The translations under genes and the position numbers were made by a program. Shown here in pieces: positions 2,193-16,399 of a stretch of DNA of 64,000 bases; the stretch's first letter is position 1, and each line of letters opens with the position of its first letter. This stretch comes from a phage, in assembly GCA_029945195.1 (NCBI GenBank), contig GCA_029945195.1_4117.1; one strand, written 5' to 3'. The notes under the pieces were generated by a model. That model searched no databases, was not told the origin of the DNA, and saw only the letters and a list, made by a program, of their open reading frames with translations.

Positions 2193-2197
2193 CAACG

Positions 2198-2360: not shown

Positions 2361-2388
2361 TTGCTATTAGTTTTTAAACGCGTATAAT
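2361..2388 (+). promoter_or_regulatory. sigma70-type promoter (TTGCTA-16-TATAAT)
   Basis: -35 2361-2366, -10 2383-2388; hairpin 2398-2416 follows. Confidence 0.55.
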
Positions 2389-2436
2389 GTTTTGCATAGG
2401 GGGAGCGGTTCCCCCTGGTAACTAAGGAATAAGAAA

Positions 2437-2673: not shown

Positions 2674-2757
2674 AGTACTTGCAATTAGTTTTTAGTACTG
2701 TACAATATTTTACATCGCACGGGGGAGCGGTTCCCCCTGGTAACTAAGGATAATCAA

Positions 2758-3057
2758 ATGAAAATTGCAATCATCGCCCTGGCTTTATCTGTTTCCTCTT
2801 TCGCTGTTAACGCGTCGTTAGATGTACCTAGTGAAAAATTCATTCAGTGTACTGTTGCGATGACAGATGAAAGTACTGGCGAGATTGTTTTAAAGGATTT
2901 AGAGATCCAGCCAGAAGCATTTAAAAGCGGCCCGTTCCATGAAGAAGACGAAAAAGGTAGCACGACAATTTATTACGATGTAAGTACTAAGCGTGGATCG
3001 GTCACGGTTATGGATACTGAGAAAGTAACGCACACCGGAGTAATTAACTGTTTATAA
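2758..3057 (+). CDS. small secreted/periplasmic protein (99 aa)
   Basis: N-terminus MKIAIIALALSVSSFAVNAS is signal-peptide-like; SD AAGGA; promoter+hairpin upstream. Confidence 0.6.
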   Translation: MKIAIIALALSVSSFAVNASLDVPSEKFIQCTVAMTDESTGEIVLKDLEIQPEAFKSGPFHEEDEKGSTTIYYDVSTKRGSVTVMDTEKVTHTGVINCL

Positions 3058-3074
3058 TATAGTACTGAATCACT

Positions 3075-3103
3075 AGCCCACCTTAAACAGTGGGCTTTTT
3101 TGT
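3075..3103 (+). terminator. rho-independent terminator
   Basis: AGCCCAC-loop-GTGGGCT then TTTTTTG; exact duplicate at 3810-3837. Confidence 0.7.
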
Positions 3104-3305
3104 TTTTGTATTATCGTAGTACTGCATACTTTAAAAATAGTTTTAAAATAGTAGTTGACATTACCACAAAAAGGCGTAGAATGTATTACATCAAGACGGG
3201 GAGCACTAAGTAGACCGCCAGTAAGTCGAACGAAAAACTGGACACGTCGATAAAACTTTGATACACTAATAAACGTAAACTAAACTTTAATTGAGGATTT
3301 ATAAA

Positions 3306-3788
3306 ATGGCTAATGTAAAATCATTCCTGAAAGCACTGATTTCAAACGATACTGTTATTGCTGCTGAATTGTTGGCTGACCTGGATAACGATACCATGAA
3401 AGCAGTACGCAACAATTTTAACATTGCGTACAGTGAAGCTAAAGAACTGCAAGCCAAAAAGGTAGCAGAACTGGAAGAACAGAAAAAAGCCCGTGAAGCC
3501 GAACTGCAAGCAACAATCGAAAGTATCCAGGCGGCGGTGGCTGGATTGGATCTGGAAGTAGTTGTAGAAATGGCACATAAAGCCCTGGCGGTTAAGTATG
3601 GTGAAGATAAGCCAGAATCTAAACCTAAAAAATGGATTCAAGAACGTGTTACTGTAGTACTTGATAACGGGGAAGAACATATGATTCCTGTACGCGGTAA
3701 CTGCATTGCGGTAGTACTGGACGCTATCAAAGAAAGCGGTATGACTCGCGAGGAATGGATCGAAGCTCATCGCAAAGTTGAAGCATAA
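3306..3788 (+). CDS. hypothetical charged, helix-rich protein (160 aa)
   Basis: track ORF 3291-3788 trimmed to ATG 3306 (SD GAGGA); K/E/A-rich. Confidence 0.55.
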   Translation: MANVKSFLKALISNDTVIAAELLADLDNDTMKAVRNNFNIAYSEAKELQAKKVAELEEQKKAREAELQATIESIQAAVAGLDLEVVVEMAHKALAVKYGEDKPESKPKKWIQERVTVVLDNGEEHMIPVRGNCIAVVLDAIKESGMTREEWIEAHRKVEA

Positions 3789-3809
3789 CAATTAAAGTAC
3801 TGAATCACT

Positions 3810-3837
3810 AGCCCACCTTAAACAGTGGGCTTTTTTG
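3810..3837 (+). terminator. rho-independent terminator
   Basis: same AGCCCACCTTAAACAGTGGGCTTTTTT as 3075-3103. Confidence 0.7.
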
Positions 3838-3855
3838 TGTCTGTAGTATTCCAGT

Positions 3856-3955
3856 CCACCAGCACCGCCTAGAATCGATTCTAACGCATTAAACTGATTA
3901 TCTGATACATCGCCCTAGCTGGTGGCGTTAAGGTCGTTAGAATGCGATTGAGAGC
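3856..3955. repeat. interleaved inverted repeats containing Chi and its complement
   Basis: CCACCAGC 3856-3863 vs GCTGGTGG 3918-3925; ...AATCGATTCTAACGCATT 3874-3890 vs CGTTAGAATGCGATTGAG 3935-3952. Confidence 0.5.
3918..3925 (+). other. Chi site GCTGGTGG
   Basis: exact E. coli Chi octamer, intergenic. Confidence 0.6.
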
Positions 3956-4073
3956 GTTTAAATTATTTTGCAAAAAGTAATAAAAAGTACTTGCACGATT
4001 AAGAGATTAGCGTATAATGTTTTACATCGAGAGGGGGAAACGGTTCTCCTTCCAAATCAAAGGAATCAAAACA

Positions 4074-4301
4074 ATGGCTATTATCATTACTCGCGTATCT
4101 GGTACTACTGGCAACGAACAAGTAGTTGCAGTCATTACGAACAAGGCAGGTGCGGAATTGCAAAATGCAATGAATACCTGGGCCGTTAATGAGTTCGGTC
4201 AGTGGGCAAGTGTAGCATACATTGAAACCTATCAAGTGCCGACCATTAGTTTAACGGATCTTGGTGTGGAACGTATCCTTTGCCTGGATGAATTAAATTA
4301 A
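4074..4301 (+). CDS. hypothetical protein (75 aa)
   Basis: track ORF 4017-4301 trimmed to ATG 4074 (SD AAAGGA); MAII N-terminus shared with 4388 and 7178 genes. Confidence 0.55.
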   Translation: MAIIITRVSGTTGNEQVVAVITNKAGAELQNAMNTWAVNEFGQWASVAYIETYQVPTISLTDLGVERILCLDELN

Positions 4302-4387
4302 AAAAAGTACTTGCAAAGTAAATCGAATAAAGTATAATACATTACATCAAGGGGAGAAATGATTCTCCCCACTACAAGGAAACTAAA

Positions 4388-4600
4388 ATGGCTATCATTA
4401 CTAAAATCAAAGTTAACAAGACTATCGTTAAACTGGCAGAAGTGAAAGAAGGTTATAAAGTATCTTGGTGCGGTATGTATCGGACGTTCGCAGATATAGA
4501 TGATGCGATCAATTATTACAGTGACACGGTTAAAAACTTTGTTCGTGCTGATGTGGTTATGGCAGTGGCAACATATAAAGCAGCGAAAGAAAGTAAGTAA
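4388..4600 (+). CDS. hypothetical protein (70 aa)
   Basis: ORF track; promoter + hairpin 4351-4370 + SD AAGGA. Confidence 0.6.
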   Translation: MAIITKIKVNKTIVKLAEVKEGYKVSWCGMYRTFADIDDAINYYSDTVKNFVRADVVMAVATYKAAKESK

Positions 4601-4691
4601 AAATATTATCACAGTACTATTGACATAGTTTGATAGTACTGGCATAATAGATTTTATCAAGACGACACATATTAATTTAAGGAATACTAAA

Positions 4692-5015
4692 ATGGCTAAA
4701 ACTATCATCAACACCGTTTCCCTGGCTGCAATCCATGCAATCAATGTTGACGGTAAACGTTGGACTGATTCATATGGCAATACTTATCATTCTTGTCATG
4801 TAAGCGTTGAACTGGATAACGGCTTGAATGATCTGGCGGTTGAATCATTTACTTATGGCTATGAGGATGCATATCAACAAACGGCGGTATCACTCTTAAA
4901 GGAATCAGTAGACGGGCTTGATACTGTTGAAACCTCCCTCTATCGTTTGTGCAATGATCTTAATATCCCGTTGCATTGTACTGTACAGAATGTTAAACGC
5001 AAAAAAGATCTTTAA
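4692..5015 (+). CDS. hypothetical protein (107 aa), paralog of 10461-10784
   Basis: shares RWTDSxGNTYHSC..FTYGY..RKKD with 10461 ORF; promoter ATTGACA..CATAAT upstream. Confidence 0.65.
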   Translation: MAKTIINTVSLAAIHAINVDGKRWTDSYGNTYHSCHVSVELDNGLNDLAVESFTYGYEDAYQQTAVSLLKESVDGLDTVETSLYRLCNDLNIPLHCTVQNVKRKKDL

Positions 5016-5095
5016 TTAGCTTTACTTTATGCAGATACTTTGATATAGTGTCTGCATAGGAGAAAGAAATTAAATCAACTTAAGAGGATAGTAAA

Positions 5096-5365
5096 ATGAA
5101 AAATATCAGTACTTTAATCGATGCAGGTACACATGTTCGTCGGTCTATGGTTGCAACCAGTTCTACAAAACAAGTACCAAGCGGTTATCTTGTATTTGTG
5201 CACGATGGAAAACTCCTGGAACGTTCAATCAATTTTGATGTTAAAAACAATTGCCGTTTTATTATCTTTCGCCGTGAACAATATAAAATTGATTTGCCAG
5301 CGAAGCCCATTAGCGGGGCGTACAACGTGCAATCATTGTTTGAGCGTCAACCATACACCTATTGA
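5096..5365 (+). CDS. hypothetical protein (89 aa)
   Basis: ORF track; SD AGAGGA 8 nt upstream. Confidence 0.5.
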   Translation: MKNISTLIDAGTHVRRSMVATSSTKQVPSGYLVFVHDGKLLERSINFDVKNNCRFIIFRREQYKIDLPAKPISGAYNVQSLFERQPYTY

Positions 5366-5416
5366 TCAAATCATCGTCAGTGGTCGATTTAGGCCGCTTA
5401 TATTGGGGATTATACC

Positions 5417-5785
5417 ATGAACGTTAATCAAGTACTGAATGAGATCGAAAGCATCATTAAACCGATGAAGCGTACTGATGCTATGTTAACACCGGAAGAA
5501 TGCCGCCTTTATGAGCGTTACAGCGTCGAACAAGTCCAGGCAATGGCTAGTATCCTTCCGGTTAGTAGTACTGCTAAAGGTGGCCCAGGTTTAACCGTAC
5601 AGGATAAAATCGATCTCCTTAAGCTCAATGGCTATGTAGTTGATGTCGATAAAGAAAAAGTAATGGTATATGATAGTAGTATTGAGCAAGACTATTATAA
5701 CTATTGCATGATTGAAAATGATCCTATTGATTCTATCATTGAAAATATGGTTAACAAAGCATTAAAAGATTTAGATTTAGTTTGA
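5417..5785 (+). CDS. hypothetical protein (122 aa)
   Basis: ORF track. Confidence 0.55.
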   Translation: MNVNQVLNEIESIIKPMKRTDAMLTPEECRLYERYSVEQVQAMASILPVSSTAKGGPGLTVQDKIDLLKLNGYVVDVDKEKVMVYDSSIEQDYYNYCMIENDPIDSIIENMVNKALKDLDLV

Positions 5786-5859
5786 CAGTACTGTAAAAAG
5801 GCGTATAATGTTTTACATAGAGGGGGGAAATGGTTCTCCCCAATAACAGGAGATACAAA

Positions 5860-6012
5860 ATGAAACAATACAACGCTCGGTTTGATGTTACTATCGGTAA
5901 CGGCAAAGGTCAATTCTCTTTCAGTACTCGACGCAGTTATACAGAAAACTTCCTGCGTAATTGTGCACTGACCGCCGCACAAATTAAACATTACTTTCAG
6001 GCTAAAAAATGA
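5860..6012 (+). CDS. hypothetical small protein (50 aa)
   Basis: track ORF 5830-6012 trimmed to ATG 5860 (SD AGGAG); hairpin about 5820-5842 upstream. Confidence 0.5.
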   Translation: MKQYNARFDVTIGNGKGQFSFSTRRSYTENFLRNCALTAAQIKHYFQAKK

Positions 6013-6098
6013 AATCATTAGCTTATTACAGTTCGGCCCTGGTCGGTGCATTGATCGCGGCGTTGTTAGTAACCTATCTATTCTTTATGGTGATTTAA
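6009..6098 (+). CDS. small hydrophobic membrane peptide (29 aa, not in track)
   Basis: hand-translated MKSLAYYSSALVGALIAALLVTYLFFMVI; ATGA overlap with upstream gene. Confidence 0.4.
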   Translation: MKSLAYYSSALVGALIAALLVTYLFFMVI

Positions 6099-6233
6099 AT
6101 GAATCCTAACGGTATAGTTTACAGTACTCCTAAAACTAAAGCAGATAAAGCTAAAGCACGTAAAGCGAAAGTACAGGAATACATCAAGCAAGGCATGACA
6201 CGAAAGGCCGCAGTACTTAAAGCTAAAAAATAA
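6099..6233 (+). CDS. small basic peptide (44 aa, not in track)
   Basis: hand-translated, lysine-rich; start abuts upstream stop. Confidence 0.4.
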   Translation: MNPNGIVYSTPKTKADKAKARKAKVQEYIKQGMTRKAAVLKAKK

Positions 6234-6237
6234 ATGA

Positions 6238-6314
6238 AAAAAGTGGTTGACTTCGGTCAGCCATTTTGCTATTATATATTCATTGAGAGATAGCTCACTA
6301 GCCCACAGGGTGCA
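6238..6314 (+). repeat. composite intergenic repeat, copy A
   Basis: hairpin 6238-6267 with embedded TTGACT 6247-6252 and TATTAT 6270-6275; conserved motif CTAGCCCACAGGGTGCA 6298-6314. Confidence 0.6.
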
Positions 6315-6368
6315 GGAGTGTATCTATTGTATAATGTTTGAGTACTGAAAACTATTTTTAAAAAGTAC

Positions 6369-6396
6369 TTGCAAACTATCTCAATAAGCGTATAAT
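6369..6396 (+). promoter_or_regulatory. sigma70-type promoter (TTGCAA-16-TATAAT)
   Basis: -35 6369-6374, -10 6391-6396; hairpin 6410-6428. Confidence 0.6.
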
Positions 6397-6447
6397 GTTT
6401 TACATCGAAAGGGGAAACGGTTTCCCCTGGTAATAAGGAAACAAATC

Positions 6448-6789
6448 ATGACTATCTCAATTGCTCAATCTAACTTTGAAAATGAAATCATCGCCCAGGC
6501 ACTGCGTTTAAATGATGGTCGGGCCGAAATTAATTACGGTTTCAATTCAGGCGGTTGCGAAAAATATCAGTACTTTACAACGGCTGATGGCTGTGTCCTG
6601 GGCATCAATACAGTTATTGTAAACATTCAGAAAATTAATTTCAATGATCCAGACGATAGCCAGTTTTACATTGTAGGCGTAGACGTGAATTATGAGGATG
6701 ATTCACTAACTGATGATCACACTGGCGAGAAGTTAGAAAGTGCATACGGTGAAGATGATTATCAGTCAGTACCGGAAGATTTTGAATAA
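6448..6789 (+). CDS. hypothetical acidic protein (113 aa)
   Basis: ORF track; SD AAGGA; promoter+hairpin cassette. Confidence 0.6.
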   Translation: MTISIAQSNFENEIIAQALRLNDGRAEINYGFNSGGCEKYQYFTTADGCVLGINTVIVNIQKINFNDPDDSQFYIVGVDVNYEDDSLTDDHTGEKLESAYGEDDYQSVPEDFE

Positions 6790-6882
6790 TATTAAAAAAT
6801 AGTTTGACAATAGATTATAGTACTGTATAATAGTTTACATCAAGGGGAGAATAGTTCTCCCCACTAACAGAGAGAAAACAAA

Positions 6883-7095
6883 ATGGCTAATATCTGCACT
6901 GCTCTGAAAAATGCAAAACAAGTTTTATTTTCTGATCACGATCATTTAAACAAGGATATTACTGGCGTTCGGAATATCAAAGATGTAAAAAGTGTTATGG
7001 GTATCTATTGCAATATGAAACGTGTTGGAACGTTCGGCGACAAAGTACTATACCAGGCAGGGGATTACAATTTTACACTGACGATCATTAACTAA
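6883..7095 (+). CDS. hypothetical protein (70 aa)
   Basis: ORF track; hairpin 6844-6862 upstream. Confidence 0.6.
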   Translation: MANICTALKNAKQVLFSDHDHLNKDITGVRNIKDVKSVMGIYCNMKRVGTFGDKVLYQAGDYNFTLTIIN

Positions 7096-7177
7096 AAATA
7101 TTATCACAGTACTATTGACATAGTTTGATAGTACTGACATAATAACTTTTATCAACTACACTACTAAGGAATTAAAA

Positions 7178-7357
7178 ATGGCTATCATCGCAAAAACTGA
7201 AATCATCGGCCTGGATTCTATCATCATGACGTTTGAAGATCAAAAAGGTATGTATGTAGTTTCATATGGTGATTATGTTCGGGAGTATGAAACGGTAGAC
7301 GAAGCCTTTGAAAGTTACATTCGCCAGGTGAATAAAGCATACGACGACTACCGCTAA
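7178..7357 (+). CDS. hypothetical small protein (59 aa, not in track)
   Basis: hand-translated MAIIAKTEIIG...; promoter ATTGACA..CATAAT and SD AAGGA upstream. Confidence 0.5.
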   Translation: MAIIAKTEIIGLDSIIMTFEDQKGMYVVSYGDYVREYETVDEAFESYIRQVNKAYDDYR

Positions 7358-7456
7358 AATATATTACCAGTACTATTAAAGATATTGACAACGTTTGATA
7401 GTACTGTATAATAAGTTTTATAAACAGTAGTTAACTTAACCTAAGAGAGAAACAAA

Positions 7457-7600
7457 ATGATCGCACTGGATTCATTCATCGACGCAGTACTGGCAAAAAC
7501 TGGCGAGGATCTTACCGCAGAACAATACGCGATGATCGAACAATGTCAACAGGACGGTAAATCGGTGAAAGATACTGTTAAGATTATCCGCAAGATGTAA
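7457..7600 (+). CDS. hypothetical small protein (47 aa, not in track)
   Basis: hand-translated; promoter TTGACA..TATAAT and SD AGAGAGA upstream. Confidence 0.45.
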   Translation: MIALDSFIDAVLAKTGEDLTAEQYAMIEQCQQDGKSVKDTVKIIRKM

Positions 7601-7606
7601 GATTAT

Positions 7607-7634
7607 AGCCCACTGGTTAACGCTGGTGGGCTTT
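7607..7634 (+). terminator. terminator-like hairpin containing Chi
   Basis: AGCCCAC/GTGGGCT stem 7607-7613/7626-7632 with Chi 7622-7629 spanning loop and 3' arm; weak T tract. Confidence 0.45.
7622..7629 (+). other. Chi site GCTGGTGG
   Basis: exact octamer. Confidence 0.6.
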
Positions 7635-7699
7635 AATTCATTACCCTATACAATGCCAGTACTAAACCGTTTATCTCGTTAGAATGCGTTACAGGACGT

Positions 7700-7903
7700 T
7701 TGACAATGATTAGCATGAAATCAGTACAAAAACAAATAGAAACATTATCAAAAATTAAACGTAAACAGTACTCCTTAGAATATACAATCAATGGTAACTA
7801 TCATCTAATGAAAGAAAATAATTTTATAGTCATTGATGAATCATTGCAAATCATTAGTATAGTACTGAAAGCATTAATCAATGACAGAAAAAAATTAAAA
7901 TAA
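7700..7903 (+). CDS. hypothetical protein (67 aa)
   Basis: ORF track; AT-rich, no strong SD. Confidence 0.35.
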   Translation: MTMISMKSVQKQIETLSKIKRKQYSLEYTINGNYHLMKENNFIVIDESLQIISIVLKALINDRKKLK

Positions 7904-7907
7904 TCTA

Positions 7908-7977
7908 TTGACAAATTATGCCAGTACTGGCATAATACTTACATCAAGACGAGAACGTCACTAACCCATAGGGTGCA
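7908..7977 (+). promoter_or_regulatory. promoter TTGACA-17-CATAAT plus conserved motif CTAACCCATAGGGTGCA
   Basis: -35 7908-7913, -10 7931-7936, motif 7961-7977. Confidence 0.5.
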
Positions 7978-8234
7978 CAAATGTAACTGTATAATATTGA
8001 TCAAAAAATGATCTGATCAATACTTGTTCAATTTGCGTAAAGTAGTATAATTCTATGCAGTTGGTTAGACGAAAGGTTATGATTAGTAGTGGAAGTGTAT
8101 AAAAATTTTCATGGTGTGGTGTTCCGCACATATGGGGATGAATATGTCGTGTCGTATGGATTGGAAAAAGTAAAAACAAGTAATATACTTGTCGCGTTAC
8201 AGTACTATAGTAATTTTATAATGAGGTTAAAATA

Positions 8235-8492
8235 ATGGCTGTAGGATTCACGAAAGATGGGGCCGAGCAAGACGAGATTAACGCAGTGATTCAGGCCGCT
8301 GTTAACCACGCTAGAACGCAAATTAACGCACAAATAGAATCACTGATACATTGCCTCGACTGCGGCGATAAAATCCCTGAGAATCGCCGCCAGGCAGTTA
8401 AGGGGTGTAAGTACTGCATAACTTGCCAGGAGGATCATGATAGTATTTTTAAACGTCAACCGCGTAATTGTTGGCATAGATCTATGAGATAA
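8235..8492 (+). CDS. TraR/DksA-family C4 zinc-finger protein (85 aa)
   Basis: CLDCGDKIPENRRQAVKGCKYCITCQ matches the CxxC-x17-CxxC TraR/DksA C-terminal zinc finger. Confidence 0.6.
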   Translation: MAVGFTKDGAEQDEINAVIQAAVNHARTQINAQIESLIHCLDCGDKIPENRRQAVKGCKYCITCQEDHDSIFKRQPRNCWHRSMR

Positions 8493-8573
8493 AAAGTATT
8501 GACAGTACTGAAAGATAGTGTATACTGTATTACATCAAGGGGAAACGTCTTCCCCTACTAAGAGGAAATGAAA

Positions 8574-8762
8574 ATGGAAAACTTATCAAGTATTTTAGTA
8601 CAAGATGATTTCGGTAATCCTGGAAGTGCTATCATCGTTCGGGGCAATAAGGCAACGTTTGTTATTGCTGGTGGGCCTGTACAGCGTAGCATTAAAAACA
8701 ATGCAGTTACAATCAATAATGTTCGCTATCGCTTAGATAAAGAATTGATTCATAAACTTTAA
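8574..8762 (+). CDS. hypothetical protein (62 aa)
   Basis: track ORF 8568-8762 trimmed to ATG 8574 (SD AGAGGA 8561-8566); hairpin 8538-8556. Confidence 0.5.
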   Translation: MENLSSILVQDDFGNPGSAIIVRGNKATFVIAGGPVQRSIKNNAVTINNVRYRLDKELIHKL

Positions 8763-8848
8763 AAAAAGTATTTGACAAAGCATCGTAGTACTGTATAATA
8801 GTTTACATGAAGGGGAGAAATGATTCTCCCCACTAAGAGGAAAGAAAC

Positions 8849-9061
8849 ATGCAAGGTCAACTAATCGTTCGTAAATGGTCTGATACTAACGAAAAACCGT
8901 GGGATGTTCAATATATCGGACCAGACGGTGTTTCACGTTATCAACCTGGCGTAACGCATAGTACTGAGCAATATGCCGCCGCTCACCGTGAACGCCTGTT
9001 AGAATCTATGAAACAGGGATTCTGTGAAAAATTCATTCAAGATCATTGGCTGAAAGATTAA
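8849..9061 (+). CDS. hypothetical protein (70 aa)
   Basis: ORF track; promoter + hairpin 8812-8831. Confidence 0.6.
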   Translation: MQGQLIVRKWSDTNEKPWDVQYIGPDGVSRYQPGVTHSTEQYAAAHRERLLESMKQGFCEKFIQDHWLKD

Positions 9062-9080
9062 TATATAAGGAGTACAGCTT

Positions 9081-9173
9081 ATGCAAATGAATCCGATGAT
9101 TGTTGTGTTAGCTGTACTTATGATCATTCATGCCATCGTAGAAGTACTAACACAATCAGGAGTAATACAATGA
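9081..9173 (+). CDS. small hydrophobic membrane peptide (30 aa, not in track)
   Basis: hand-translated MQMNPMIVVLAVLMIIHAIVEVLTQSGVIQ; SD AAGGAG upstream. Confidence 0.45.
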   Translation: MQMNPMIVVLAVLMIIHAIVEVLTQSGVIQ

Positions 9174-9340
9174 TCCAGGTGGAATTATCAGTACTGAAAG
9201 ATCTGTTTTATCGGTTAGGCACTACTGGCGAATACCCTAAAGGGGATACTGCTAAACTATACATTGCATTGGATGTATGGCAACGTAATGAACTGGCTAA
9301 CGCCTGGCGTAAAGGTAAATCAGAGGGGATTGCAGCATGA
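9170..9340 (+). CDS. hypothetical small protein (56 aa, not in track)
   Basis: hand-translated; ATGA overlap with neighbours. Confidence 0.45.
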   Translation: MIQVELSVLKDLFYRLGTTGEYPKGDTAKLYIALDVWQRNELANAWRKGKSEGIAA

Positions 9341-9486
9341 AAGAATTTTTATTCGAAGTAGTGTTCCAGGGCGTAGGAAGTAACCAACTGATACGATCAA
9401 GTGGTTACAATGTTAACCAGGCATGGAATAACATTAAACAAATGTACCCGAACGCTATCACCTATCGCAACCCAAAACAAGTTTAA
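9337..9486 (+). CDS. hypothetical small protein (49 aa, not in track)
   Basis: hand-translated; ATGA overlap. Confidence 0.45.
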   Translation: MKEFLFEVVFQGVGSNQLIRSSGYNVNQAWNNIKQMYPNAITYRNPKQV

Positions 9487-9497
9487 AAAGAATTGAA

Positions 9498-9567
9498 AAA
9501 GGGATTGACTCCGGTCAGTCCCTTTGCTATTATATATTCATTGAAACAATCTAGCCCACAGGGTGCA
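9498..9567 (+). repeat. composite intergenic repeat, copy B
   Basis: hairpin 9498-9525 with embedded TTGACT 9505-9510 and TATTAT 9528-9533; motif CTAGCCCACAGGGTGCA 9551-9567. Confidence 0.6.
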
Positions 9568-9585
9568 TAAATGTATCTATTGTTT

Positions 9586-9593
9586 GCTGGTGG
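9586..9593 (+). other. Chi site GCTGGTGG
   Basis: exact octamer, intergenic. Confidence 0.6.
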
Positions 9594-9633
9594 CTAGTAC
9601 TATCAAGTACTGAAAACTATTTTTAAAAAGTAC

Positions 9634-9661
9634 TTGCATTGTACTTAGAATCAAGTATAAT
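9634..9661 (+). promoter_or_regulatory. sigma70-type promoter (TTGCAT-16-TATAAT)
   Basis: -35 9634-9639, -10 9656-9661. Confidence 0.55.
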
Positions 9662-9668
9662 GTTTTAC

Positions 9669-9741
9669 ATCAGGACGGGGAACGAAATAAGTAACCCCGT
9701 TAAGTAGTCCAGGAGTAAGACATACGAAAACCTCCCCTGAT
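9669..9741 (+). ncRNA. conserved ~75-nt structured leader element, copy 2
   Basis: about 90% identical to 631-705 with the same flanking promoters. Confidence 0.4.
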
Positions 9742-9748
9742 AAAATAG

Positions 9749-9777
9749 TTTGACAATAGAAATTAAACGAGTATAAT
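9749..9777 (+). promoter_or_regulatory. sigma70-type promoter (TTGACA-17-TATAAT)
   Basis: -35 9749-9754, -10 9772-9777. Confidence 0.6.
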
Positions 9778-9807
9778 ACTTACATCAACCACAAAGAGGA
9801 ATACAAA

Positions 9808-10008
9808 ATGAAACATTTTACTTTCGGTGTAGTAGGCTTTACAGTATCCAGCGGCGTTTATAAATCAGAACGCGGTGCTAAAAATGCAGCAAGTCGGGCG
9901 TATGGTTCACAGCGTGACTTACAGGTCGGTTATATTAGTAACATTAATAACATGTTTATTCCTGTTTCACAGCGTAAAGCGGGTAACATGAAATGGGAAA
10001 CAATTTGA
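9808..10008 (+). CDS. hypothetical protein (66 aa)
   Basis: ORF track; SD AGAGGA. Confidence 0.6.
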   Translation: MKHFTFGVVGFTVSSGVYKSERGAKNAASRAYGSQRDLQVGYISNINNMFIPVSQRKAGNMKWETI

Positions 10009-10097
10009 TAAAATAGTTTGACAATAGTTTTTAGTACTGTATAATATTTTACATCAAGTGGGGAATAGTTCCCCACCTAACAAAGAGAGAAATTAAA

Positions 10098-10373
10098 ATG
10101 CGGATTCTACTGACAGCTAACGAAATCGAGCAAGTACTGACTACTAACCTGGAACAATGGAAACGTGATGCAGATATCCAGGCGGTACAATGGCTTAACG
10201 ATAAGTTAACGCCGGATGACTTAAGCAAGATTGTAGATCCTCAATTCTACGAAGATATTCACGACACCGCGTTAAGCGTCGAGGATGTACTTGATAAGCA
10301 CTATATTGATACTGATTTACAGGTTTACGGTCGTAAAAACTTTATCACTATTCACGACATTTACAATACTTAA
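10098..10373 (+). CDS. hypothetical acidic protein (91 aa)
   Basis: ORF track; hairpin 10059-10077. Confidence 0.6.
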   Translation: MRILLTANEIEQVLTTNLEQWKRDADIQAVQWLNDKLTPDDLSKIVDPQFYEDIHDTALSVEDVLDKHYIDTDLQVYGRKNFITIHDIYNT

Positions 10374-10460
10374 GTATTGACAAAGTATCTTAGTACTGTA
10401 TAATAGTTTACATCAAGGCAGGGGAATGGTTCCCCTCCTAACTAAAAGAGAGAAATTAAA

Positions 10461-10784
10461 ATGGCTATGATCCTTACCCAGAAAGTAGAAATGAAAATTG
10501 TAACTTCCTTTGACATTAAAGTTAATCGGTGGACTGATAGCCACGGCAATACTTACCACTCATGCTACGTGTCTGCATTGATTGGTGACCGCTGGGAAGA
10601 CCTGGGACACGAAACATTTACTTACGGTTACGGCACACAAGGCGAGTACACTGGTTTGGAAATCATTAAGGAAACTGTAATAGGTTTCAACCCGAAAGAG
10701 AAAGTACTACACAGAATTGAGAAAGAGATCAACAAAGAAATTACAGTTCGATACTACGATGTAAAACGTAAGAAAGACATGTAA
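10461..10784 (+). CDS. hypothetical protein (107 aa), paralog of 4692-5015
   Basis: shared RWTDSHGNTYHSC / FTYGY / KRKKD motifs; hairpin 10420-10436. Confidence 0.65.
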   Translation: MAMILTQKVEMKIVTSFDIKVNRWTDSHGNTYHSCYVSALIGDRWEDLGHETFTYGYGTQGEYTGLEIIKETVIGFNPKEKVLHRIEKEINKEITVRYYDVKRKKDM

Positions 10785-10883
10785 TAGAATCCATTTAAAG
10801 TACTATTTGACATTGCCCAGATAGTACTTTATAATAGACTCTAACTTGTAGTACTAATTAACTTAACTAATAGGATGTACACC

Positions 10884-11279
10884 ATGATTACTAAATTCTT
10901 CGCTACCCGTGAACAAGCTCGCATCGTTGCCCGTGAAGAAGGTGAAACATTTAAAGACATGGGCAAAGATGCACCGAAAGGACAACGCTGGGCGGTACAG
11001 TTCAAAGAGATCTCTGATATTGTGAATTCACCTGAGCCTGTACTTACAGCAGCAGAACTAAAGCAAGCTCAAGAACTGGCTGAAGTACTGAACGCTCAAG
11101 ATGACTTTTTGAAAGGTTCTGATATTGAAGTTACAGTTAACGCAAATGCATGGACTCACGCGGATCACCTGGCAAACCTTAAGCGTCCAAGTGAACTGAT
11201 TCGTAACCAGAAAGAGATCCGTCATGACCGTAAAGGAAACCGTGTAACAGTATACAGTAAACGCCGCCAGGTTATCTAA
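10884..11279 (+). CDS. hypothetical protein (131 aa)
   Basis: track ORF 10875-11279; second ATG 10884 better spaced from AGGA. Confidence 0.55.
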   Translation: MITKFFATREQARIVAREEGETFKDMGKDAPKGQRWAVQFKEISDIVNSPEPVLTAAELKQAQELAEVLNAQDDFLKGSDIEVTVNANAWTHADHLANLKRPSELIRNQKEIRHDRKGNRVTVYSKRRQVI

Positions 11280-11302
11280 TAACTTTGCAGTACTAACAAC
11301 AC

Positions 11303-11327
11303 GGCGGGAACTATTCCCGCCTTTTTT
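11303..11327 (+). terminator. rho-independent terminator
   Basis: GGCGGGAA-CTA-TTCCCGCC then TTTTTT. Confidence 0.7.
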
Positions 11328-11341
11328 ATAGGATAAACAAA

Positions 11342-11596
11342 ATGATTAAGGTTCAACTATCAAACGATAATGTATTACGGGTACACTATAAAGCCCCACA
11401 GAGAATCATCACAAAGGCCGTACAGCTTGCTAATGAGTTTATTAATGGTAGTCTATTGCCTAGGAAGTTAAGCAACGGGAAACTACGTGTAATCGACGTA
11501 GACACTAACAATAGAATAGTGATCGAGAGTACTGGAAAAATTAATCTATATGAACACCAACAATACAATAAAAAAATAAAACTAATATCACGTTGA
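11342..11596 (+). CDS. hypothetical protein (84 aa)
   Basis: ORF track; SD AGGA. Confidence 0.55.
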   Translation: MIKVQLSNDNVLRVHYKAPQRIITKAVQLANEFINGSLLPRKLSNGKLRVIDVDTNNRIVIESTGKINLYEHQQYNKKIKLISR

Positions 11597-11621
11597 CAGT
11601 ACTCAAATGTTTTAGTATTAT
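11593..11621 (+). promoter_or_regulatory. promoter TTGACA-17-TATTAT
   Basis: TTGACAGTACTCAAATGTTTTAGTA block duplicated at 11874-11902. Confidence 0.5.
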
Positions 11622-11654
11622 GTATCTATACCAACACAGAGAGAGAGAAACAAA

Positions 11655-11873
11655 ATGAAATTATCTAAAATCGAAAAGAAAACTATTGATGAAGCAGTGA
11701 AGCACGGTTATACCTTTCGTAATGATTCACACTTCACTAGTTTTCAACAGGGAAACCGTACCATCAAAAAACTCATTGATAAAGGTTTACTCACTAAGGT
11801 TGATAACGGGAACGGTGTAGAATATCAACCGACAGAAGACGCATTATCACTAAAGAAATATTCTATTATCTAA
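11655..11873 (+). CDS. hypothetical protein (72 aa)
   Basis: ORF track. Confidence 0.55.
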   Translation: MKLSKIEKKTIDEAVKHGYTFRNDSHFTSFQQGNRTIKKLIDKGLLTKVDNGNGVEYQPTEDALSLKKYSII

Positions 11874-11902
11874 TTGACAGTACTCAAATGTTTTAGTACT
11901 AT
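11874..11902 (+). promoter_or_regulatory. promoter TTGACA-17-TACTAT (duplicate of 11593-11621)
   Basis: near-identical 30-nt block. Confidence 0.5.
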
Positions 11903-11930
11903 GTACGCATACCAACACGGGGAAAACAAA

Positions 11931-12173
11931 ATGATTACTTTAGAAAAACGTATCAAAGAGACTACAACGCTGGTGGAACTGTTAACCGTTCTTAAATGCC
12001 GGGTAACTCCATTCAGTACACCGGACTTTATCAACATGGTGGACGTTAACGGTCGATATCGTATTGCGGTCGAACAAGGTACGGCAAAAGTATTCAGTAC
12101 TAAAAATACGCGTGAAGTATTCCACGCAGTTCAAGTAAAAAAAGTAGTTGCCATTGATAGTAAAGTACTGTAA
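11931..12173 (+). CDS. hypothetical protein (80 aa)
   Basis: track ORF 11874-12173 trimmed to ATG 11931 (SD GGGGAAAA). Confidence 0.5.
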   Translation: MITLEKRIKETTTLVELLTVLKCRVTPFSTPDFINMVDVNGRYRIAVEQGTAKVFSTKNTREVFHAVQVKKVVAIDSKVL

Positions 12174-12204
12174 TATAGTTTCATTAACTCAAGGAGTCAA
12201 CACA

Positions 12205-12789
12205 ATGCGTAACTATACTAAATTCATCCGTTCACTTCATGCAATGGAAACCAACAAAGAGATCCTTTCAGCTTGTCGGTTAGCTGGACTGGAGATCGTC
12301 GGTGCGGGTTCTTCCCGTATTGTATTCGCTTTAAATGATCGGTTAGTGATTAAGGTCGCGAATTGTGATGCGGGTGTAGAACAAAATGAAACTGAATGTA
12401 AGGTATGGAATTTTTTAGATTATGACCGTCCGCACCTTAAACAGTACTTTGCTAAAGTGCATATGCATTTATGCGATCCTGATAATCTGTTTATTGTTAT
12501 GGATCGTTTGAGTACTGCAAGCAAAGGCAGTGTAAAGCATGTAAACGCGTGCAATGAGTTAAAGTACAATATTAAACGTAATACGGTAGAACGCCATCAC
12601 CATTTCGCTGATGCTCTCAATCACGTTGATGATACATTATCCACACTAACGATAAGAGATATCAGAAAACAGAATATCGGCCAGGATCGCAACGGCTTGA
12701 TTAAAGTACTTGATTACGGTTTAACCCGCAATATCTGGAATCAGTACTATAAAAAACGTGATGTTAACGCGATAACTATAACACGATAA
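12205..12789 (+). CDS. minimal eukaryotic-like protein kinase fold (194 aa)
   Basis: track ORF trimmed to ATG 12205 (SD AAGGAG); Gly loop VGAGSSRIVF, LVIKV lysine, hinge FIVMDRL, catalytic loop IRDIRKQNIG, DYG; C-lobe subdomains VIII-XI absent. Confidence 0.55.
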   Translation: MRNYTKFIRSLHAMETNKEILSACRLAGLEIVGAGSSRIVFALNDRLVIKVANCDAGVEQNETECKVWNFLDYDRPHLKQYFAKVHMHLCDPDNLFIVMDRLSTASKGSVKHVNACNELKYNIKRNTVERHHHFADALNHVDDTLSTLTIRDIRKQNIGQDRNGLIKVLDYGLTRNIWNQYYKKRDVNAITITR

Positions 12790-12800
12790 AAAAGATTAAA

Positions 12801-12875
12801 AAAGGGATTGACTCCAGTCAGTCCCTTTGCTATTATATATTCATTGAGAGATAACTCACTGACCCATAGGGTGCG
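12801..12875 (+). repeat. composite intergenic repeat, copy C
   Basis: hairpin 12801-12828 with embedded TTGACT 12808-12813 and TATTAT 12831-12836; motif CTGACCCATAGGGTGCG 12859-12875. Confidence 0.6.
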
Positions 12876-12930
12876 GAAGTGTATCTATTATATAAGTATT
12901 CAGTACTGAAAACTATTTTATAAAAAGTAC

Positions 12931-12958
12931 TTGCAAACTATCTCAATGAGCGTATAAT
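12931..12958 (+). promoter_or_regulatory. sigma70-type promoter (TTGCAA-16-TATAAT)
   Basis: -35 12931-12936, -10 12953-12958. Confidence 0.6.
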
Positions 12959-13013
12959 GTTTTATATCGAGAGGGGGAAATGGTTCTCCCTGGTACTAAA
13001 AGGAATCAAGACG

Positions 13014-13235
13014 ATGACTACTATGACATGCGTTCACGCTTCAAATCTTCTGAATGATGCAGCATTTAAAGCAGGTGAAGAATATCAATGCTATCGGGAT
13101 GAAAATAAAAAAGTTTTCGTCGTTGATGCTAACGGTTTCCATATTGAATTACAATCCGGCTTCACTGGTTTAAATGGTAAATCAGTATGGGGCGTTAATG
13201 ATGATAATGGTCTTTATCACTTTATCCGTAATTAA
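13014..13235 (+). CDS. hypothetical protein (73 aa)
   Basis: track ORF 12957-13235 trimmed to ATG 13014 (SD AAAGGA). Confidence 0.55.
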   Translation: MTTMTCVHASNLLNDAAFKAGEEYQCYRDENKKVFVVDANGFHIELQSGFTGLNGKSVWGVNDDNGLYHFIRN

Positions 13236-13318
13236 GTATTGACAAAGTATATCAGTACTGTATAATAGTTTACATCAAGGGGAGAATAGTTCTCCCCACA
13301 ATAAAAGGAAACAAAATT

Positions 13319-13591
13319 ATGTCCAGCTACTCCGCTACTATGATTATTAAAGATATGAACGGTAATCCTACTTCTGCTGGTGGATCATTTGGTAACATTA
13401 ATTTAGATGGGCGGTTATCAATTGAATCAGCCATCAATGCCGCGAAAGAAGTTTTTAAGAATGAATGTACTGTAAGCAAACTGGATTATATGGGCTTCGC
13501 TATCGAGAAAACTAATCGTTTTGTGGACTACAAAAAACCACTGATGATCGATACTAACCTGAAAGCTAACGAAGTGGAATACTTATTATGA
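13319..13591 (+). CDS. hypothetical protein (90 aa)
   Basis: ORF track; hairpin 13279-13297; contains in-frame Chi 13376-13383. Confidence 0.6.
   Translation: MSSYSATMIIKDMNGNPTSAGGSFGNINLDGRLSIESAINAAKEVFKNECTVSKLDYMGFAIEKTNRFVDYKKPLMIDTNLKANEVEYLL
13376..13383 (+). other. Chi site GCTGGTGG (inside CDS)
   Basis: exact octamer. Confidence 0.55.
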
Positions 13592-13779
13592 CAGTTGAAG
13601 AAGTTAAAAAAGTACTGGCAGTACTACGCTATCATAATCATTGCAAGGTGAAGAATGATCCTGATTATGTTGATTCATCCCTGGAGGAAGACACCTTAAA
13701 CGCGATAAGCTATATGCAAACATTAGCAAAGCGTATGACCGAAAAGAATAGGCCGGACTATATCGGAAATAAAATTTAA
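13588..13779 (+). CDS. hypothetical protein (63 aa)
   Basis: ORF track; ATGA overlap with upstream gene. Confidence 0.5.
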   Translation: MTVEEVKKVLAVLRYHNHCKVKNDPDYVDSSLEEDTLNAISYMQTLAKRMTEKNRPDYIGNKI

Positions 13780-13867
13780 AAAGTACTTGCATTGTAGTTA
13801 GATTAACGTATAATGTTTTATATCGAGAGGGGGGAAATGGTTTCCCCTCAAGTCCAGGAGATACACC

Positions 13868-14131
13868 ATGAACACTATCGAAATCACTATCAATGCACAC
13901 GTATACGACAACGTAGTACTGCAAACTACTATGACCGCTAATGATACCAGTACTTTGCGGAATATCGTTATTAGTTCAGTATGTGCCGCTATCGGTGATG
14001 TTGCCCTGGAAAATGCAAAACACGTCAACGATGCCTTTACGATGTGCAAACGTGATAACTCAAAACATATCATCTGCGAAGGTTACGGCGGTGTAGAATA
14101 CAATGTTTATATGAAAAAAGTACTTGCATAA
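13868..14131 (+). CDS. hypothetical protein (87 aa)
   Basis: ORF track; SD AGGAG; hairpin about 13825-13847. Confidence 0.6.
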   Translation: MNTIEITINAHVYDNVVLQTTMTANDTSTLRNIVISSVCAAIGDVALENAKHVNDAFTMCKRDNSKHIICEGYGGVEYNVYMKKVLA

Positions 14132-14199
14132 TAACTAAAACAAAGTATAATGTTTTGCATAGGGGGAGATATCCTCCCCCACTAATAAGGAGTACTAAA

Positions 14200-14424
14200 A
14201 TGGCTAACTTTGATGAACTGATGCGGGAAGTAGCTACCCTGGCAGAAGAGAAGAAATCATTTGATTCTATCTATAACACCGCTTACAGTGATTCAGTACT
14301 GGCATGTACTCAGGATCAAAAAGATGAACTGATCGCCACCTATCATGAAGCATGGAAGTATTACCGCCAATGGGAGAAAGAAGAAAGCGAGTCTACCATC
14401 AACGGCATCAATAATCTAATCTAA
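14200..14424 (+). CDS. hypothetical protein (74 aa)
   Basis: track ORF 14155-14424 trimmed to ATG 14200 (SD AAGGAG). Confidence 0.55.
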   Translation: MANFDELMREVATLAEEKKSFDSIYNTAYSDSVLACTQDQKDELIATYHEAWKYYRQWEKEESESTINGINNLI

Positions 14425-14499
14425 AGTTTTATTTCAGTACTATTGACATAGCTTGATAGTACTGATGTAATAACTTTACTAACTACAAGGGGAAACATA

Positions 14500-14757
14500 A
14501 TGGAACAGTTCACACAATATCGGGTAAATCCTCAAGCTATGGCCTACGTAGAAGACCATAAAACATTACCAGTACAGACACCAATCAAAGGCCGTATCTA
14601 TCGTGCTATGCAGTGGAATAACGCCTATAATGGCTATAAAGCGGTATCCGCTGCAATGTACTTAGGGGATGGCGAATGGTTTGATCCAAATAATCCTGGT
14701 GCACTCGATAGTACTGAACAAATGACATGGGCCGACTATATCGAAGATATCTCATAA
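14500..14757 (+). CDS. hypothetical protein (85 aa)
   Basis: ORF track. Confidence 0.55.
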   Translation: MEQFTQYRVNPQAMAYVEDHKTLPVQTPIKGRIYRAMQWNNAYNGYKAVSAAMYLGDGEWFDPNNPGALDSTEQMTWADYIEDIS

Positions 14758-14845
14758 AAACTATTTGACAGTACTACAAGATAATGTATAATGTTTTACA
14801 TAGAGCGGGGGAATAGTTCTCCCGCACCTTTAGGAGTAAAACATT

Positions 14846-15046
14846 ATGTCAATCGCTAACGAATTGGTTGCAGTACTGAATGAAGCAAAAGCCAACTGCA
14901 TCGATGTACAGATCAAAGAGCTTGGCAATGGCTTGATCGGCTGTACTTGTTCCGTGCAAACGGCTACCGATTATCGGGAAGTGGAATCACTCGAATCACT
15001 GGTACGGTATATTAAAATCCTGGTAGAAGATTGGAGAATCATCTAA
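14846..15046 (+). CDS. hypothetical protein (66 aa)
   Basis: ORF track; SD AGGAG. Confidence 0.55.
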   Translation: MSIANELVAVLNEAKANCIDVQIKELGNGLIGCTCSVQTATDYREVESLESLVRYIKILVEDWRII

Positions 15047-15061
15047 CAAAAAAGAATAAAA

Positions 15062-15132
15062 AAAAGGGATTGACTCCGGTCAGTCCCTTTGCTATTATAT
15101 ACGCATAGACAAAAATTAGCCCACAGGGTGCA
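15062..15132 (+). repeat. composite intergenic repeat, copy D
   Basis: hairpin with embedded TTGACT 15070-15075 and TATTAT 15093-15098; motif TAGCCCACAGGGTGCA 15117-15132. Confidence 0.6.
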
Positions 15133-15175
15133 GAGAAGTATCTATAAGATAGTTAATAACGGTGAGTAACTATCT

Positions 15176-15183
15176 GCTGGTGG
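15176..15183 (+). other. Chi site GCTGGTGG
   Basis: exact octamer, intergenic. Confidence 0.6.
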
Positions 15184-15303
15184 ATGTAATGCCAGTACTC
15201 AAAACTATTTCAAAAAAAGTATTGACAAAGTATATCAGTACTGCAATAATGTATCTCGTAGGGCGGCAATGGTGCGACGGCCCACAAAGTTAGGAGATTC
15301 AAA

Positions 15304-15630
15304 ATGAGTACTTCAATCGCTATCGTTAAAGCTTTCATCCGTACCAATTTCGACCGCATTACTGTTGATGGTAATGATCGGGAAGTAGAATACTCTTTCA
15401 TCGTTGCACAAACCGCAAACGGTGCACGCTATATCTTAAACGATAGTGAAGCTAACCACTACTTCTATAATAAGGGATTACATTATATCCCTAGCGAAGT
15501 AGTCTACACTAAGATGAATAAGCTAGTAGACAAGATTAACGCAAAGGGTACTATAGATTTACAGTACTGGACCGAAACCGATCCAGAATACGGATCACAT
15601 CGTTACCTGAATCCAGGAATTAAAATGTAA
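15304..15630 (+). CDS. hypothetical protein (108 aa)
   Basis: ORF track; SD AGGAG. Confidence 0.6.
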   Translation: MSTSIAIVKAFIRTNFDRITVDGNDREVEYSFIVAQTANGARYILNDSEANHYFYNKGLHYIPSEVVYTKMNKLVDKINAKGTIDLQYWTETDPEYGSHRYLNPGIKM

Positions 15631-15719
15631 AAAGTACTTGCATTGTACTTAGAATCAAGTATAATGTTTTACATAGAGAGGGGGAAATGGTTCTCCCTCC
15701 TAAATTAAGGAGTTTTATC

Positions 15720-16121
15720 ATGACCTTCTCAATCACTTCCTTCGCTGACGTTTTAGTACTGGCTCGGACTTTTGGTAAAGATGCACTGGAGTACGCTGTA
15801 AGTAATGGCACTCTCCAACCGGAACAATGCCGCATCATTGGAAACTGCAAACGTTGGGCGGTATCCAATACTATTGCACTAGAAAACTTCAACGATGGTA
15901 ACAATGAGTATTCAGTTGATGCAGTATTCGAAGCCGTTGATCTTGGCGGTATCTATAACACTAACCTAAATGATGTGCGTATCGTTCGCACGGGGTTCGG
16001 TGCTTATGATGTATCTATCCGTGAAGCTATGAACACCGGATACATTAGTAAGGACTTACTTGCTCACATCATGCAGCTATGGACGGAACGTAACGAAGCA
16101 CGCACTATCTTAGGGCTGTAA
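15720..16121 (+). CDS. hypothetical protein (133 aa)
   Basis: track ORF 15687-16121 trimmed to ATG 15720 (SD AAGGAG). Confidence 0.6.
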   Translation: MTFSITSFADVLVLARTFGKDALEYAVSNGTLQPEQCRIIGNCKRWAVSNTIALENFNDGNNEYSVDAVFEAVDLGGIYNTNLNDVRIVRTGFGAYDVSIREAMNTGYISKDLLAHIMQLWTERNEARTILGL

Positions 16122-16189
16122 GCATTACACATCACCAAACATCATAGGCCGCTCTCTAGCGGCCTTAACTATATCAGGAGGGCATACAT

Positions 16190-16399
16190 ATGTTCTATAC
16201 AGTATACAGCGTTCTAGGTACTATTGCTGGCGTACATGATAACGTCAGTGATGCTATGCGTACAGTACTGCAACAGGTTCCACTAAAGCCTAAGACCATT
16301 AAGCAGATGACAGCACGACTAACCAGGGCGACCGCTGGCGTGGAAGTATGGCAGGACTACGGGGATACACAGATAATCGTTAGCGTAACGAAGGATTAA
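16190..16399 (+). CDS. hypothetical protein (69 aa)
   Basis: ORF track; SD AGGAGG; 5' hairpin 16146-16165. Confidence 0.55.
   Translation: MFYTVYSVLGTIAGVHDNVSDAMRTVLQQVPLKPKTIKQMTARLTRATAGVEVWQDYGDTQIIVSVTKD

Follow-up and report, generated by a model that had tools for sequence, protein, structure and literature searches.

Why should one end of a phage's DNA be crowded with an octamer that a recombination enzyme of its host reads? The question is raised by a 64,000-nucleotide stretch of phage DNA (NCBI GenBank assembly GCA_029945195.1, contig GCA_029945195.1_4117.1), called the window here, with positions counted along its given (+) strand. Copies of the Chi octamer GCTGGTGG, which is read by the RecBCD enzyme of Escherichia coli (PMC12315714), are packed between positions 3856 and 15183. 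Based on the comparison with related genomes we consider it probable, at roughly 70%, that these octamers serve the host RecBCD as functional Chi sites, and that they have been selected specifically in a direct terminal repeat (DTR) of ~21 kb. We infer that RecBCD would recognise them during infection, and that the benefit to the phage could be protection, recombination, or both.

Chi sites in the window and its terminal repeat

An exact search of both strands of the window found seven copies of GCTGGTGG on the + strand, at 3918, 7622, 8667, 9586, 11969, 13376, and 15176, and the complement at 3856 and 55897. The cluster of 3856-15183 accordingly consists of eight exact copies, seven on the + and one on the − strand, and there is no + strand copy from 16 to 64 kb. 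A sequence-only reading of this DNA had listed five + sites. All five exist, but the list missed those at 8667 and 11969. It had the two complements and the empty 16-64 kb part right, and its description of the cluster as all plus-strand corresponds to the 7:1 ratio inside it. It had also called the sites mostly intergenic, which is roughly true for four of the seven + sites (3918, 7622, 9586, 15176) and for the − site at 3856, but not for the other three, which lie within small open reading frames (ORFs).

The intergenic sites differ in their settings. The − site (3856..3863), which reads CCACCAGC on the + strand, forms an inverted pair with the + site at 3918..3925 and faces RecBCD coming from the left terminus. 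The + site of this pair lies downstream of a terminator hairpin (3810-3831) and is kept in all five relatives compared. The site at 7622..7629 spans the loop and the 3' arm of the hairpin AGCCCAC-tggttaacgctg-GTGGGCT (7607-7632). The site at 9586..9593 is carried by a small insertion into the terminator/promoter cassette at 9483-9810, a repeated element, and that at 15176..15183 belongs to a different, larger insertion in a paralogous cassette (15048-15305). Two of the sites in ORFs are read in the frame GCT GGT GGN, encoding Ala-Gly-Gly: 8667..8674 in an ORF of 64 residues (8568-8762) and 13376..13383 in one of 90 residues (13319-13591). The third, 11969..11976, is read in a small ORF as nnG CTG GTG Gnn, encoding Leu-Val. 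The flanks of the Chi copies are unrelated to one another, unlike those of the words belonging to the promoter, 5'-hairpin, and terminator cassettes. Outside the cluster, in the AT-rich unique part, the lone complement at 55897-55904 (−) stands beside cccctgcggggggg, which is G-rich and resembles a hairpin; this site is consistent with background.

The window matches the Asteriusvirus (121Q/PBECO4-like) jumbo coliphages at about 88-95% identity in a mosaic pattern at megablast level. The matched genomes are those of 121Q, PBECO4/SP27, phAPEC6, JP4, vB_Ec-M-J, and the Salmonella phage SD-6_S16. Judged by this similarity the window is the end part of an Asteriusvirus genome. The record of vB_Ec-M-J, whose genome was assembled from eight record pieces, annotates a DTR of 21,525 bp, and the copies at both ends are identical. 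In an alignment with vB_Ec-M-J the first nucleotide of the window falls on position 3097, and its position ~16,547 on the annotated end of the DTR at 21,525. By this alignment 1..16547 (+) of the window is part of the ~21-kb DTR, and the window starts ~3.1 kb inside the repeat. The Chi cluster fills this part and ends at the inner edge of the DTR, so that the placement of the cluster at a genome end by the sequence-only reading holds. At the same position the GC content falls from 0.39-0.40 to about 0.35 (0.386 in the DTR versus 0.354 in the rest), and the gene layout shifts from spaced small genes to tightly overlapping ones. With PhageTerm, DTRs of 20.7-21.5 kb have been determined in three Asteriusviruses, among them two besides vB_Ec-M-J with 20.7-21.0 kb, and that of fEgEco12 was additionally confirmed by restriction mapping (PMC13070987; PMC11895373).

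Enrichment, recurrence and conservation of the exact word

The number of Chi sites is far above chance. In dinucleotide shuffles of the whole window 0.43 copies are expected on both strands together, and the maximum in 100 shuffles was two. Markov models of orders 0-4 fitted to positions 1-16,550 predict 0.08-0.28 copies on the + strand (0.09-0.13 with a background estimated after masking of the Chi copies), which agrees with the earlier estimate of about 0.1 copies per strand in 16 kb. Against this expectation the seven sites are a ~30- to 80-fold excess (Poisson p ~3e-11 for order 2), and the enrichment is stronger than had been claimed. In the complete DTR of vB_Ec-M-J, nine + and two − sites compare with expectations of 0.1-0.4 and 0.04-0.09, respectively. 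An unbiased ranking of all 8-mers places Chi among the most over-represented words, below those of the repeated promoter, 5'-hairpin, and terminator cassettes.

The excess is specific to the exact word. On the + strand of the window's repeat part there are seven exact Chi sites but only one copy of the 24 one-mismatch variants summed, and the corresponding numbers are nine and six in the DTR of vB_Ec-M-J and 12 and six in the DTR of the Klebsiella aerogenes phage fENko-Kae01. In the unique region, 14 exact sites are found against 129 of the variants. Composition or codon usage would have lifted the one-mismatch neighbours as well. These near-variants of 5'-GCTGGTGG-3' are not enriched.

The sequence-only reading had proposed a genome-wide count against a Markov expectation. 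This count, run on vB_Ec-M-J, localises the enrichment to the DTR, which makes up 6% of the non-redundant sequence and holds nine of the 23 + sites (p = 4e-6), corresponding to a tenfold higher density of + Chi (0.42/kb in the DTR versus 0.042/kb in the unique part). The 335.5-kb unique part contains 14 + and nine − sites, a ~2-fold excess over an order-3 model, whose strand follows that of the local genes, and the + strand lacks Chi between position 324,291 and the right-hand copy of the repeat.

Terminal Chi clusters recur in distant enterobacterial jumbo phages, which were reached via an annotated phage collection and via proteins of CBB and fENko-Kae01. The latter has only ~29% average nucleotide identity to Asteriusvirus (PMC13070987). 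Its DTR of 19,736 bp, as defined by PhageTerm, contains 12 + and two − sites, compared to one of each in the next 30 kb. Four of these sites are located in promoter spacers. At 19354 there is a hairpin that is like that of the window at 7607-7632, with the same loop and Chi. The Pectobacterium phage CBB (Mimasvirus) has seven + and two − sites in its 22,456-bp repeat, compared to two and one in the next 22.5 kb. In a 358,663-bp genome from IMG/VR and in five uncultivated IMG/VR contigs (four of 355-366 kb and one of 33 kb) the homologous region has 5-14 Chi copies on the + strand and 1-4 on the − strand per 10-20 kb. When a DTR protein of 213 residues was used as query for related loci, 121Q was the sole match. 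As a control from another host, the 39-kb DTR (36.5% GC) of the Pseudomonas jumbo phage PA5oct contains no GCTGGTGG. It also contains no cluster of the Pseudomonas Chi-like word GCTGGCGC, of which there is one copy, and this gives no positive evidence that the word switches with the host.

Close to the left terminus two of the clades also share a Chi palindrome, CCACCAGC-N4-GCTGGTGG, which provides one Chi per orientation and a potential hairpin. It is found at 588-607 in vB_Ec-M-J and at 484-503 in fENko-Kae01, that is ~0.5-0.6 kb from the terminus, and also in JP4 and SD-6; its position lies outside the window. A search of IMG/VR for the palindrome yielded 46 loci, most of which, 121Q aside, belong to GC-rich contigs (~2-90 kb) whose Chi counts are ordinary.

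Conservation was assessed at orthologous positions of the window and the genomes of vB_Ec-M-J, JP4, SP27, SD-6_S16, and 121Q. All seven + octamers are intact in each of the five other genomes, although the identity of the ±40-nt flanks drops to 70-85% at 9586, 11969, and 15176. In ±60-nt alignments of the six genomes none of the 56 octamer columns varies, compared to 156 of the 867 flank columns (Fisher p = 2e-5). For example, site 9586 has flanks of only 78-81% identity in JP4, SP27, and SD-6, and two nucleotides past its intact octamer a 10-bp indel begins. At 15176 the flank identity is down to 70-73% in four relatives, yet the octamer is intact up to a 13-bp indel that follows it directly (0 nt). 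Site 11969 has kept its octamer in every relative, with flanks of 80-85% identity. Even within a coding sequence, at 8667, the octamer is invariant next to a synonymous position that varies among the relatives. With the exact word far better kept than its flanks, these alignments indicate that the octamers are under purifying selection. Some turnover of Chi is nevertheless seen: the − site at 3856 is kept in vB_Ec-M-J, JP4, SP27, and SD-6_S16 but lost in 121Q (where it reads CCGTCAGC), and an eighth + site, at 19935 of vB_Ec-M-J, is present in three genomes, changed to GCTGGCGG in JP4, and absent from the window and from 121Q. In addition, only two of the four paralogous intergenic cassettes at 6225, 9483, 12786, and 15048 contain a Chi. 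The insertions of these two are different and their main shared stretch is the octamer itself. From the sequences it looks as if the two cassettes gained their Chi independently.

A proposed role in RecBCD recognition and its alternatives

How could the sites work? The closest genomes, with about 90-95% identity, are those of Asteriusvirus phages of E. coli and Salmonella, both of which have RecBCD, in agreement with the earlier suggestion of a RecBCD-proficient host. A Chi on the top strand is read by RecBCD that enters at the right, the 3' end of that strand (PMC12315714). The + sites therefore act on enzymes moving from right to left and work in the right-hand copy of the repeat, at the far end of the genome, and not, as had been implied, on enzymes entering from the nearby left terminus. 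In vB_Ec-M-J, whose termini are annotated, the nine + sites are actively oriented toward the right terminus at distances of 1.4-20.9 kb, and the − sites that face the left terminus are at ~0.6 kb (outside the window) and at about 7-7.4 kb (3856 of the window). For the window this geometry, with + sites directed toward the right and − sites toward the left terminus, is taken by homology to vB_Ec-M-J.

The packaged genome would be linear with the repeat at both ends, and hence both ends would be entry points for RecBCD. An enzyme entering from the right would meet seven + sites in the phage of the window and nine in vB_Ec-M-J, and one entering from the left would meet the − sites. At a recognised Chi, RecBCD would stop degrading the 3'-ended strand and load RecA. 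Because the DNA degraded before that point belongs to a repeat that exists in a second copy, no unique information would be lost. The RecA filament formed on repeat DNA could then invade the other repeat copy, leading to circles or concatemers for replication. As a side benefit, less substrate for the capture of CRISPR spacers would be produced. Assuming a recognition of 30-40% per site, nine sites would stop 96-99% of the enzymes and two sites 51-64%. We take the model over from the proposal made for phage P1 and from the genetics of the LLS-type lambdoid phages, and apply it here by analogy.

Several points weigh against this role. The action of RecBCD on the DNA of the window is deduced from sequence comparison. 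The annotation of vB_Ec-M-J, outside the part homologous to the window, lists a UvsX-like recombinase, a UvsY mediator, an SbcCD-like nuclease, and several exonucleases, and a phage encoding these has, unlike the LLS class, no obvious need for host recombination. Other means of dealing with RecBCD, its neutralisation or a capping of the DNA ends, are also conceivable for such a phage; among ten DTR proteins tested against Pfam no RecBCD inhibitor or end-protection protein was recognised. The left end has only one or two correctly oriented Chi sites, which would make the protection lopsided. The genomes behind the conservation counts are related and thus not fully independent. Finally, at three of the four intergenic + sites the octamer overlaps an arm of an AGCCCAC/GTGGGCT-type hairpin, so that part of each of these octamers may be under another constraint.

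The strongest alternative, which sharpens the idea of the sequence-only reading, is a direction-specific shield: only the right end would be exposed, for instance because it enters first, the co-oriented array would be selected for this end, and the − sites would be incidental. It is in keeping with the ratios of + to − sites, which are 7:1 in the window, 9:2 in vB_Ec-M-J, 12:2 in fENko-Kae01, and 7:2 in CBB, and with the much higher stopping power calculated for nine sites than for two. However, in the DTRs of the three clades, whose repeats cannot be aligned to each other, the pooled ratio is 28:6, and a + share of 75-82% is already expected from Markov models and from the one-mismatch neighbours (binomial p 0.4-1.0). 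All genes of the repeats are encoded on the + strand, which is rich in purines and in G. A ratio that equals the compositional expectation is no evidence of direction-specific selection, and we have therefore rejected orientation as an independent signal. Moreover, both orientations are enriched, the + orientation 37-62 times and the − orientation 24-54 times, and the − site of the Chi palindrome, kept in both Asteriusvirus and fENko-Kae01, suggests that the left end matters as well. Together, ratio and enrichment lend no support to the claim of the sequence-only reading that co-orientation marks one defined direction of exposure. We also considered whether gene orientation reveals the first-entering end. 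The T5 repeat has its main pre-early genes transcribed toward the first-entering end, by analogy to which the right end would be first here. In T7 transcription runs away from the entering end, which predicts the left end. The two analogies are opposed and allow no conclusion; besides, the T5 repeat has two Chi sites, both in the inactive orientation for the entering end. On balance we regard the one-sided shield as unlikely.

A more far-reaching version of the RecBCD reading may be proposed tentatively. The DTR of the Rak2/121Q-like phages might be a Chi-armoured sacrificial buffer, of which RecBCD chews redundant DNA, switches at Chi, and performs the first circularising or concatenating recombination. 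A virulent phage with its own recombinase would then depend on the RecBCD-Chi system of its host to start the infection, and the strand imbalance would reflect the end that is exposed first. This combination of steps is possible but, in our view, rather doubtful.

Alternatively, the octamer could be a signal for a factor other than RecBCD, such as an early regulator of the phage, the packaging machinery or termini, or a replication element, and its identity with Chi would be a coincidence. The sites are confined to the terminal repeat, where signals for packaging, termini, and early regulation lie, the palindromic pair is found ~0.5-0.6 kb from the left terminus in two clades, and several fENko-Kae01 copies are placed in promoter spacers just upstream of the −10 box. 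Yet the sites have no common context, as they are found in ORFs in two frames, in hairpin loops, in promoter spacers, and in plain spacers. Their flanks are unrelated, and the exact host Chi is found in at least three clades with non-alignable repeats but is absent from the DTR of the Pseudomonas jumbo phage. It is hard to imagine that a foreign signal would coincide with the one word among 65,536 octamers that RecBCD reads, and we consider this explanation very unlikely. An import of E. coli DNA as source of the sites was excluded by the GC content of 0.386 and by the Chi density, which is 2.4-fold the host value of 217 sites per Mbp (bioRxiv 10.1101/2021.07.08.451572). That the excess is unselected, arising from composition, from codon usage (Ala-Gly-Gly as GCT GGT GGN), or from a copied intergenic cassette, is hardly credible: two of the three coding sites do have this frame, the DTR has the higher GC content and is full of repeated cassettes, and three of the four intergenic + sites share the AGCCCAC...GTGG hairpin context, but the idea is largely refuted by Markov models up to order 4 predicting at most 0.4 sites, by neighbours that are not enriched, by octamers far better conserved than their flanks, and by Chi occurring in only two of four cassettes and in different insertions, and the unique region has the same codon usage at a tenfold lower density.

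The early region around the sites

By its promoters the repeat is an early region, with small early genes each having its own consensus sigma-70 promoter; the 13.6 kb from 3 to 16.6 kb of the window contain ten perfect TTGACA-16/17-TATAAT promoters. A Pfam analysis of the ten DTR proteins gave a DksA/TraR zinc finger and a weak, sub-threshold kinase-like match. Seven early transcripts (at 1944, 5833, 6854, 12983, 13289, 14816, and 15690) apparently begin with the same 5' hairpin, GGGGAGAA-atg/ata-GTTCTCCC, which sits a few bases past the −10 box (TATAATGTTTTACATAGAG...). It looks like a conserved stem-loop of the 5' untranslated region, perhaps for mRNA stabilisation. A perfect hairpin of 28 nucleotides, AAAGGGATTGACTCCGGTCAGTCCCTTT, occurs in four copies (6240-6267, 9498-9525, 12801-12828, and 15063-15090) within the repeated intergenic cassette of ~200 bp. 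It carries a TTGACT −35 box in its stem and is followed by a TATTAT −10 box, and can be read from the sequence as a combined terminator-like and promoter element. Words of the AGTACT type, among them the palindrome CAGTACTG, are also in vast excess beside the early promoters, with 19 copies of CAGTACTG in the repeat part of the window, 36 in the DTR of vB_Ec-M-J, and 40 copies of AAAGTACT in that of CBB. Being conserved across genera, these words may be an operator or a UP/−35-associated motif.

Directly past the repeat, from 16619 to ~23000 of the window, a run of overlapping genes of similar lengths (~65-85 residues) follows, and the same layout is found at 21.6-27 kb of vB_Ec-M-J. These genes probably encode small early proteins of one paralogous family. 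In vB_Ec-M-J, short tandem iteron-like repeats (GGCTAGAT / GGACG / GGCTAAAC units) are found at 775-900, a short way inside the left terminus, and could be part of a packaging or termini signal. In the JP4 record (PQ330092.1 120364-150354) two tandem copies of the terminal repeat (period 20,114 bp) stand in mid-sequence. The assembler probably represented the repeat in this way, in a record with an arbitrary deposited start. Eleven records labelled as Campylobacter phage, one as Acinetobacter phage, and one as Erwinia phage also match the repeat region at megablast level, which may be due to mislabelling, contamination, or a shared mobile segment.

Known systems and what the sites would mean

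Terminal Chi clusters are already known in temperate phages, namely in P1 and in the recombinase-lacking LLS-type lambdoid phages, and the DTR of the jumbo phages is a further case. The Asteriusvirus papers describe the repeats without mention of Chi (PMC13070987; PMC11895373), and in the full-text literature searched we found no report of Chi clusters in terminal repeats of jumbo phages or in long exact terminal repeats, and no data on a dependence of Asteriusvirus on host RecBCD or RecA. If the sites are functional, redundancy together with a RecBCD switch would be one reason for keeping a repeat of 20 kb, and a dependence on host genes (recBCD, recA) would be predicted for phages that are under development for therapy. 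The Chi-dense block would also be a simple marker of the termini in Asteriusvirus records with arbitrary start points, and the phages would offer a clean test of Chi as protection versus Chi as start of recombination in a virulent phage.

The E. coli chromosome uses the same octamer and the same enzyme, and the orientation of its sites is skewed with strand composition and the direction of replication. Its density, however, is ~0.22/kb in DNA of 51% GC, compared to ~0.5/kb in DNA of 38% GC here, where the high density is restricted to 6% of the genome. T5 is comparable in its gene layout, having a long exact DTR (10.2 kb) with pre-early genes that are driven by the host RNA polymerase. It was rejected as a Chi-armoured analogue, because the 10.2-kb repeat contains only the two wrongly oriented Chi sites.

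Closer are the LLS-type lambdoid phages with their terminally clustered, co-oriented Chi sites (Genome Res 2025, PMC12315714). As in the window, many Chi sites gather toward one end of the genome, and most are on the strand whose Chi is read by RecBCD entering there. For these phages the cluster is interpreted, with genetic evidence, as a way to use the host RecBCD for recombination-dependent growth (PMC12315714). The LLS class is, however, defined by cos ends and the lack of a phage recombination module, whereas the relatives of the phage analysed here have long direct repeats and, according to the vB_Ec-M-J annotation, the UvsX-like recombinase and its accompanying proteins. Furthermore, the orientation bias is taken as functional in the LLS phages while here it stays within the compositional expectation.

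In P1 and its relatives P7 and D6 the Chi sites cluster near the terminally redundant ends (Subramaniam & Smith, bioRxiv 10.1101/2021.07.08.451572), and their proposed role is RecBCD/RecA-dependent recombination between the terminal repeats after injection (bioRxiv 10.1101/2021.07.08.451572). The phages differ in many respects. P1 is temperate, has a genome of ~95 kb, and is packaged by headful from pac with variable terminal redundancy, while the phage of the window is virulent, with a genome of about 350-380 kb and fixed exact repeats of ~21 kb full of early genes, and its Asteriusvirus relatives, unlike P1, encode their own recombination proteins of the UvsX/UvsY type. The dependence on RecBCD is documented for P1 and is predicted here if the sites are functional. 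In both, however, the Chi density is far above expectation, at the packaged ends or terminal repeats, and on both strands. With sites in both orientations, terminal repeats, and a presumed recombination between these repeats, P1 appears by analogy to be the closest likeness of the terminal Chi cluster described here.

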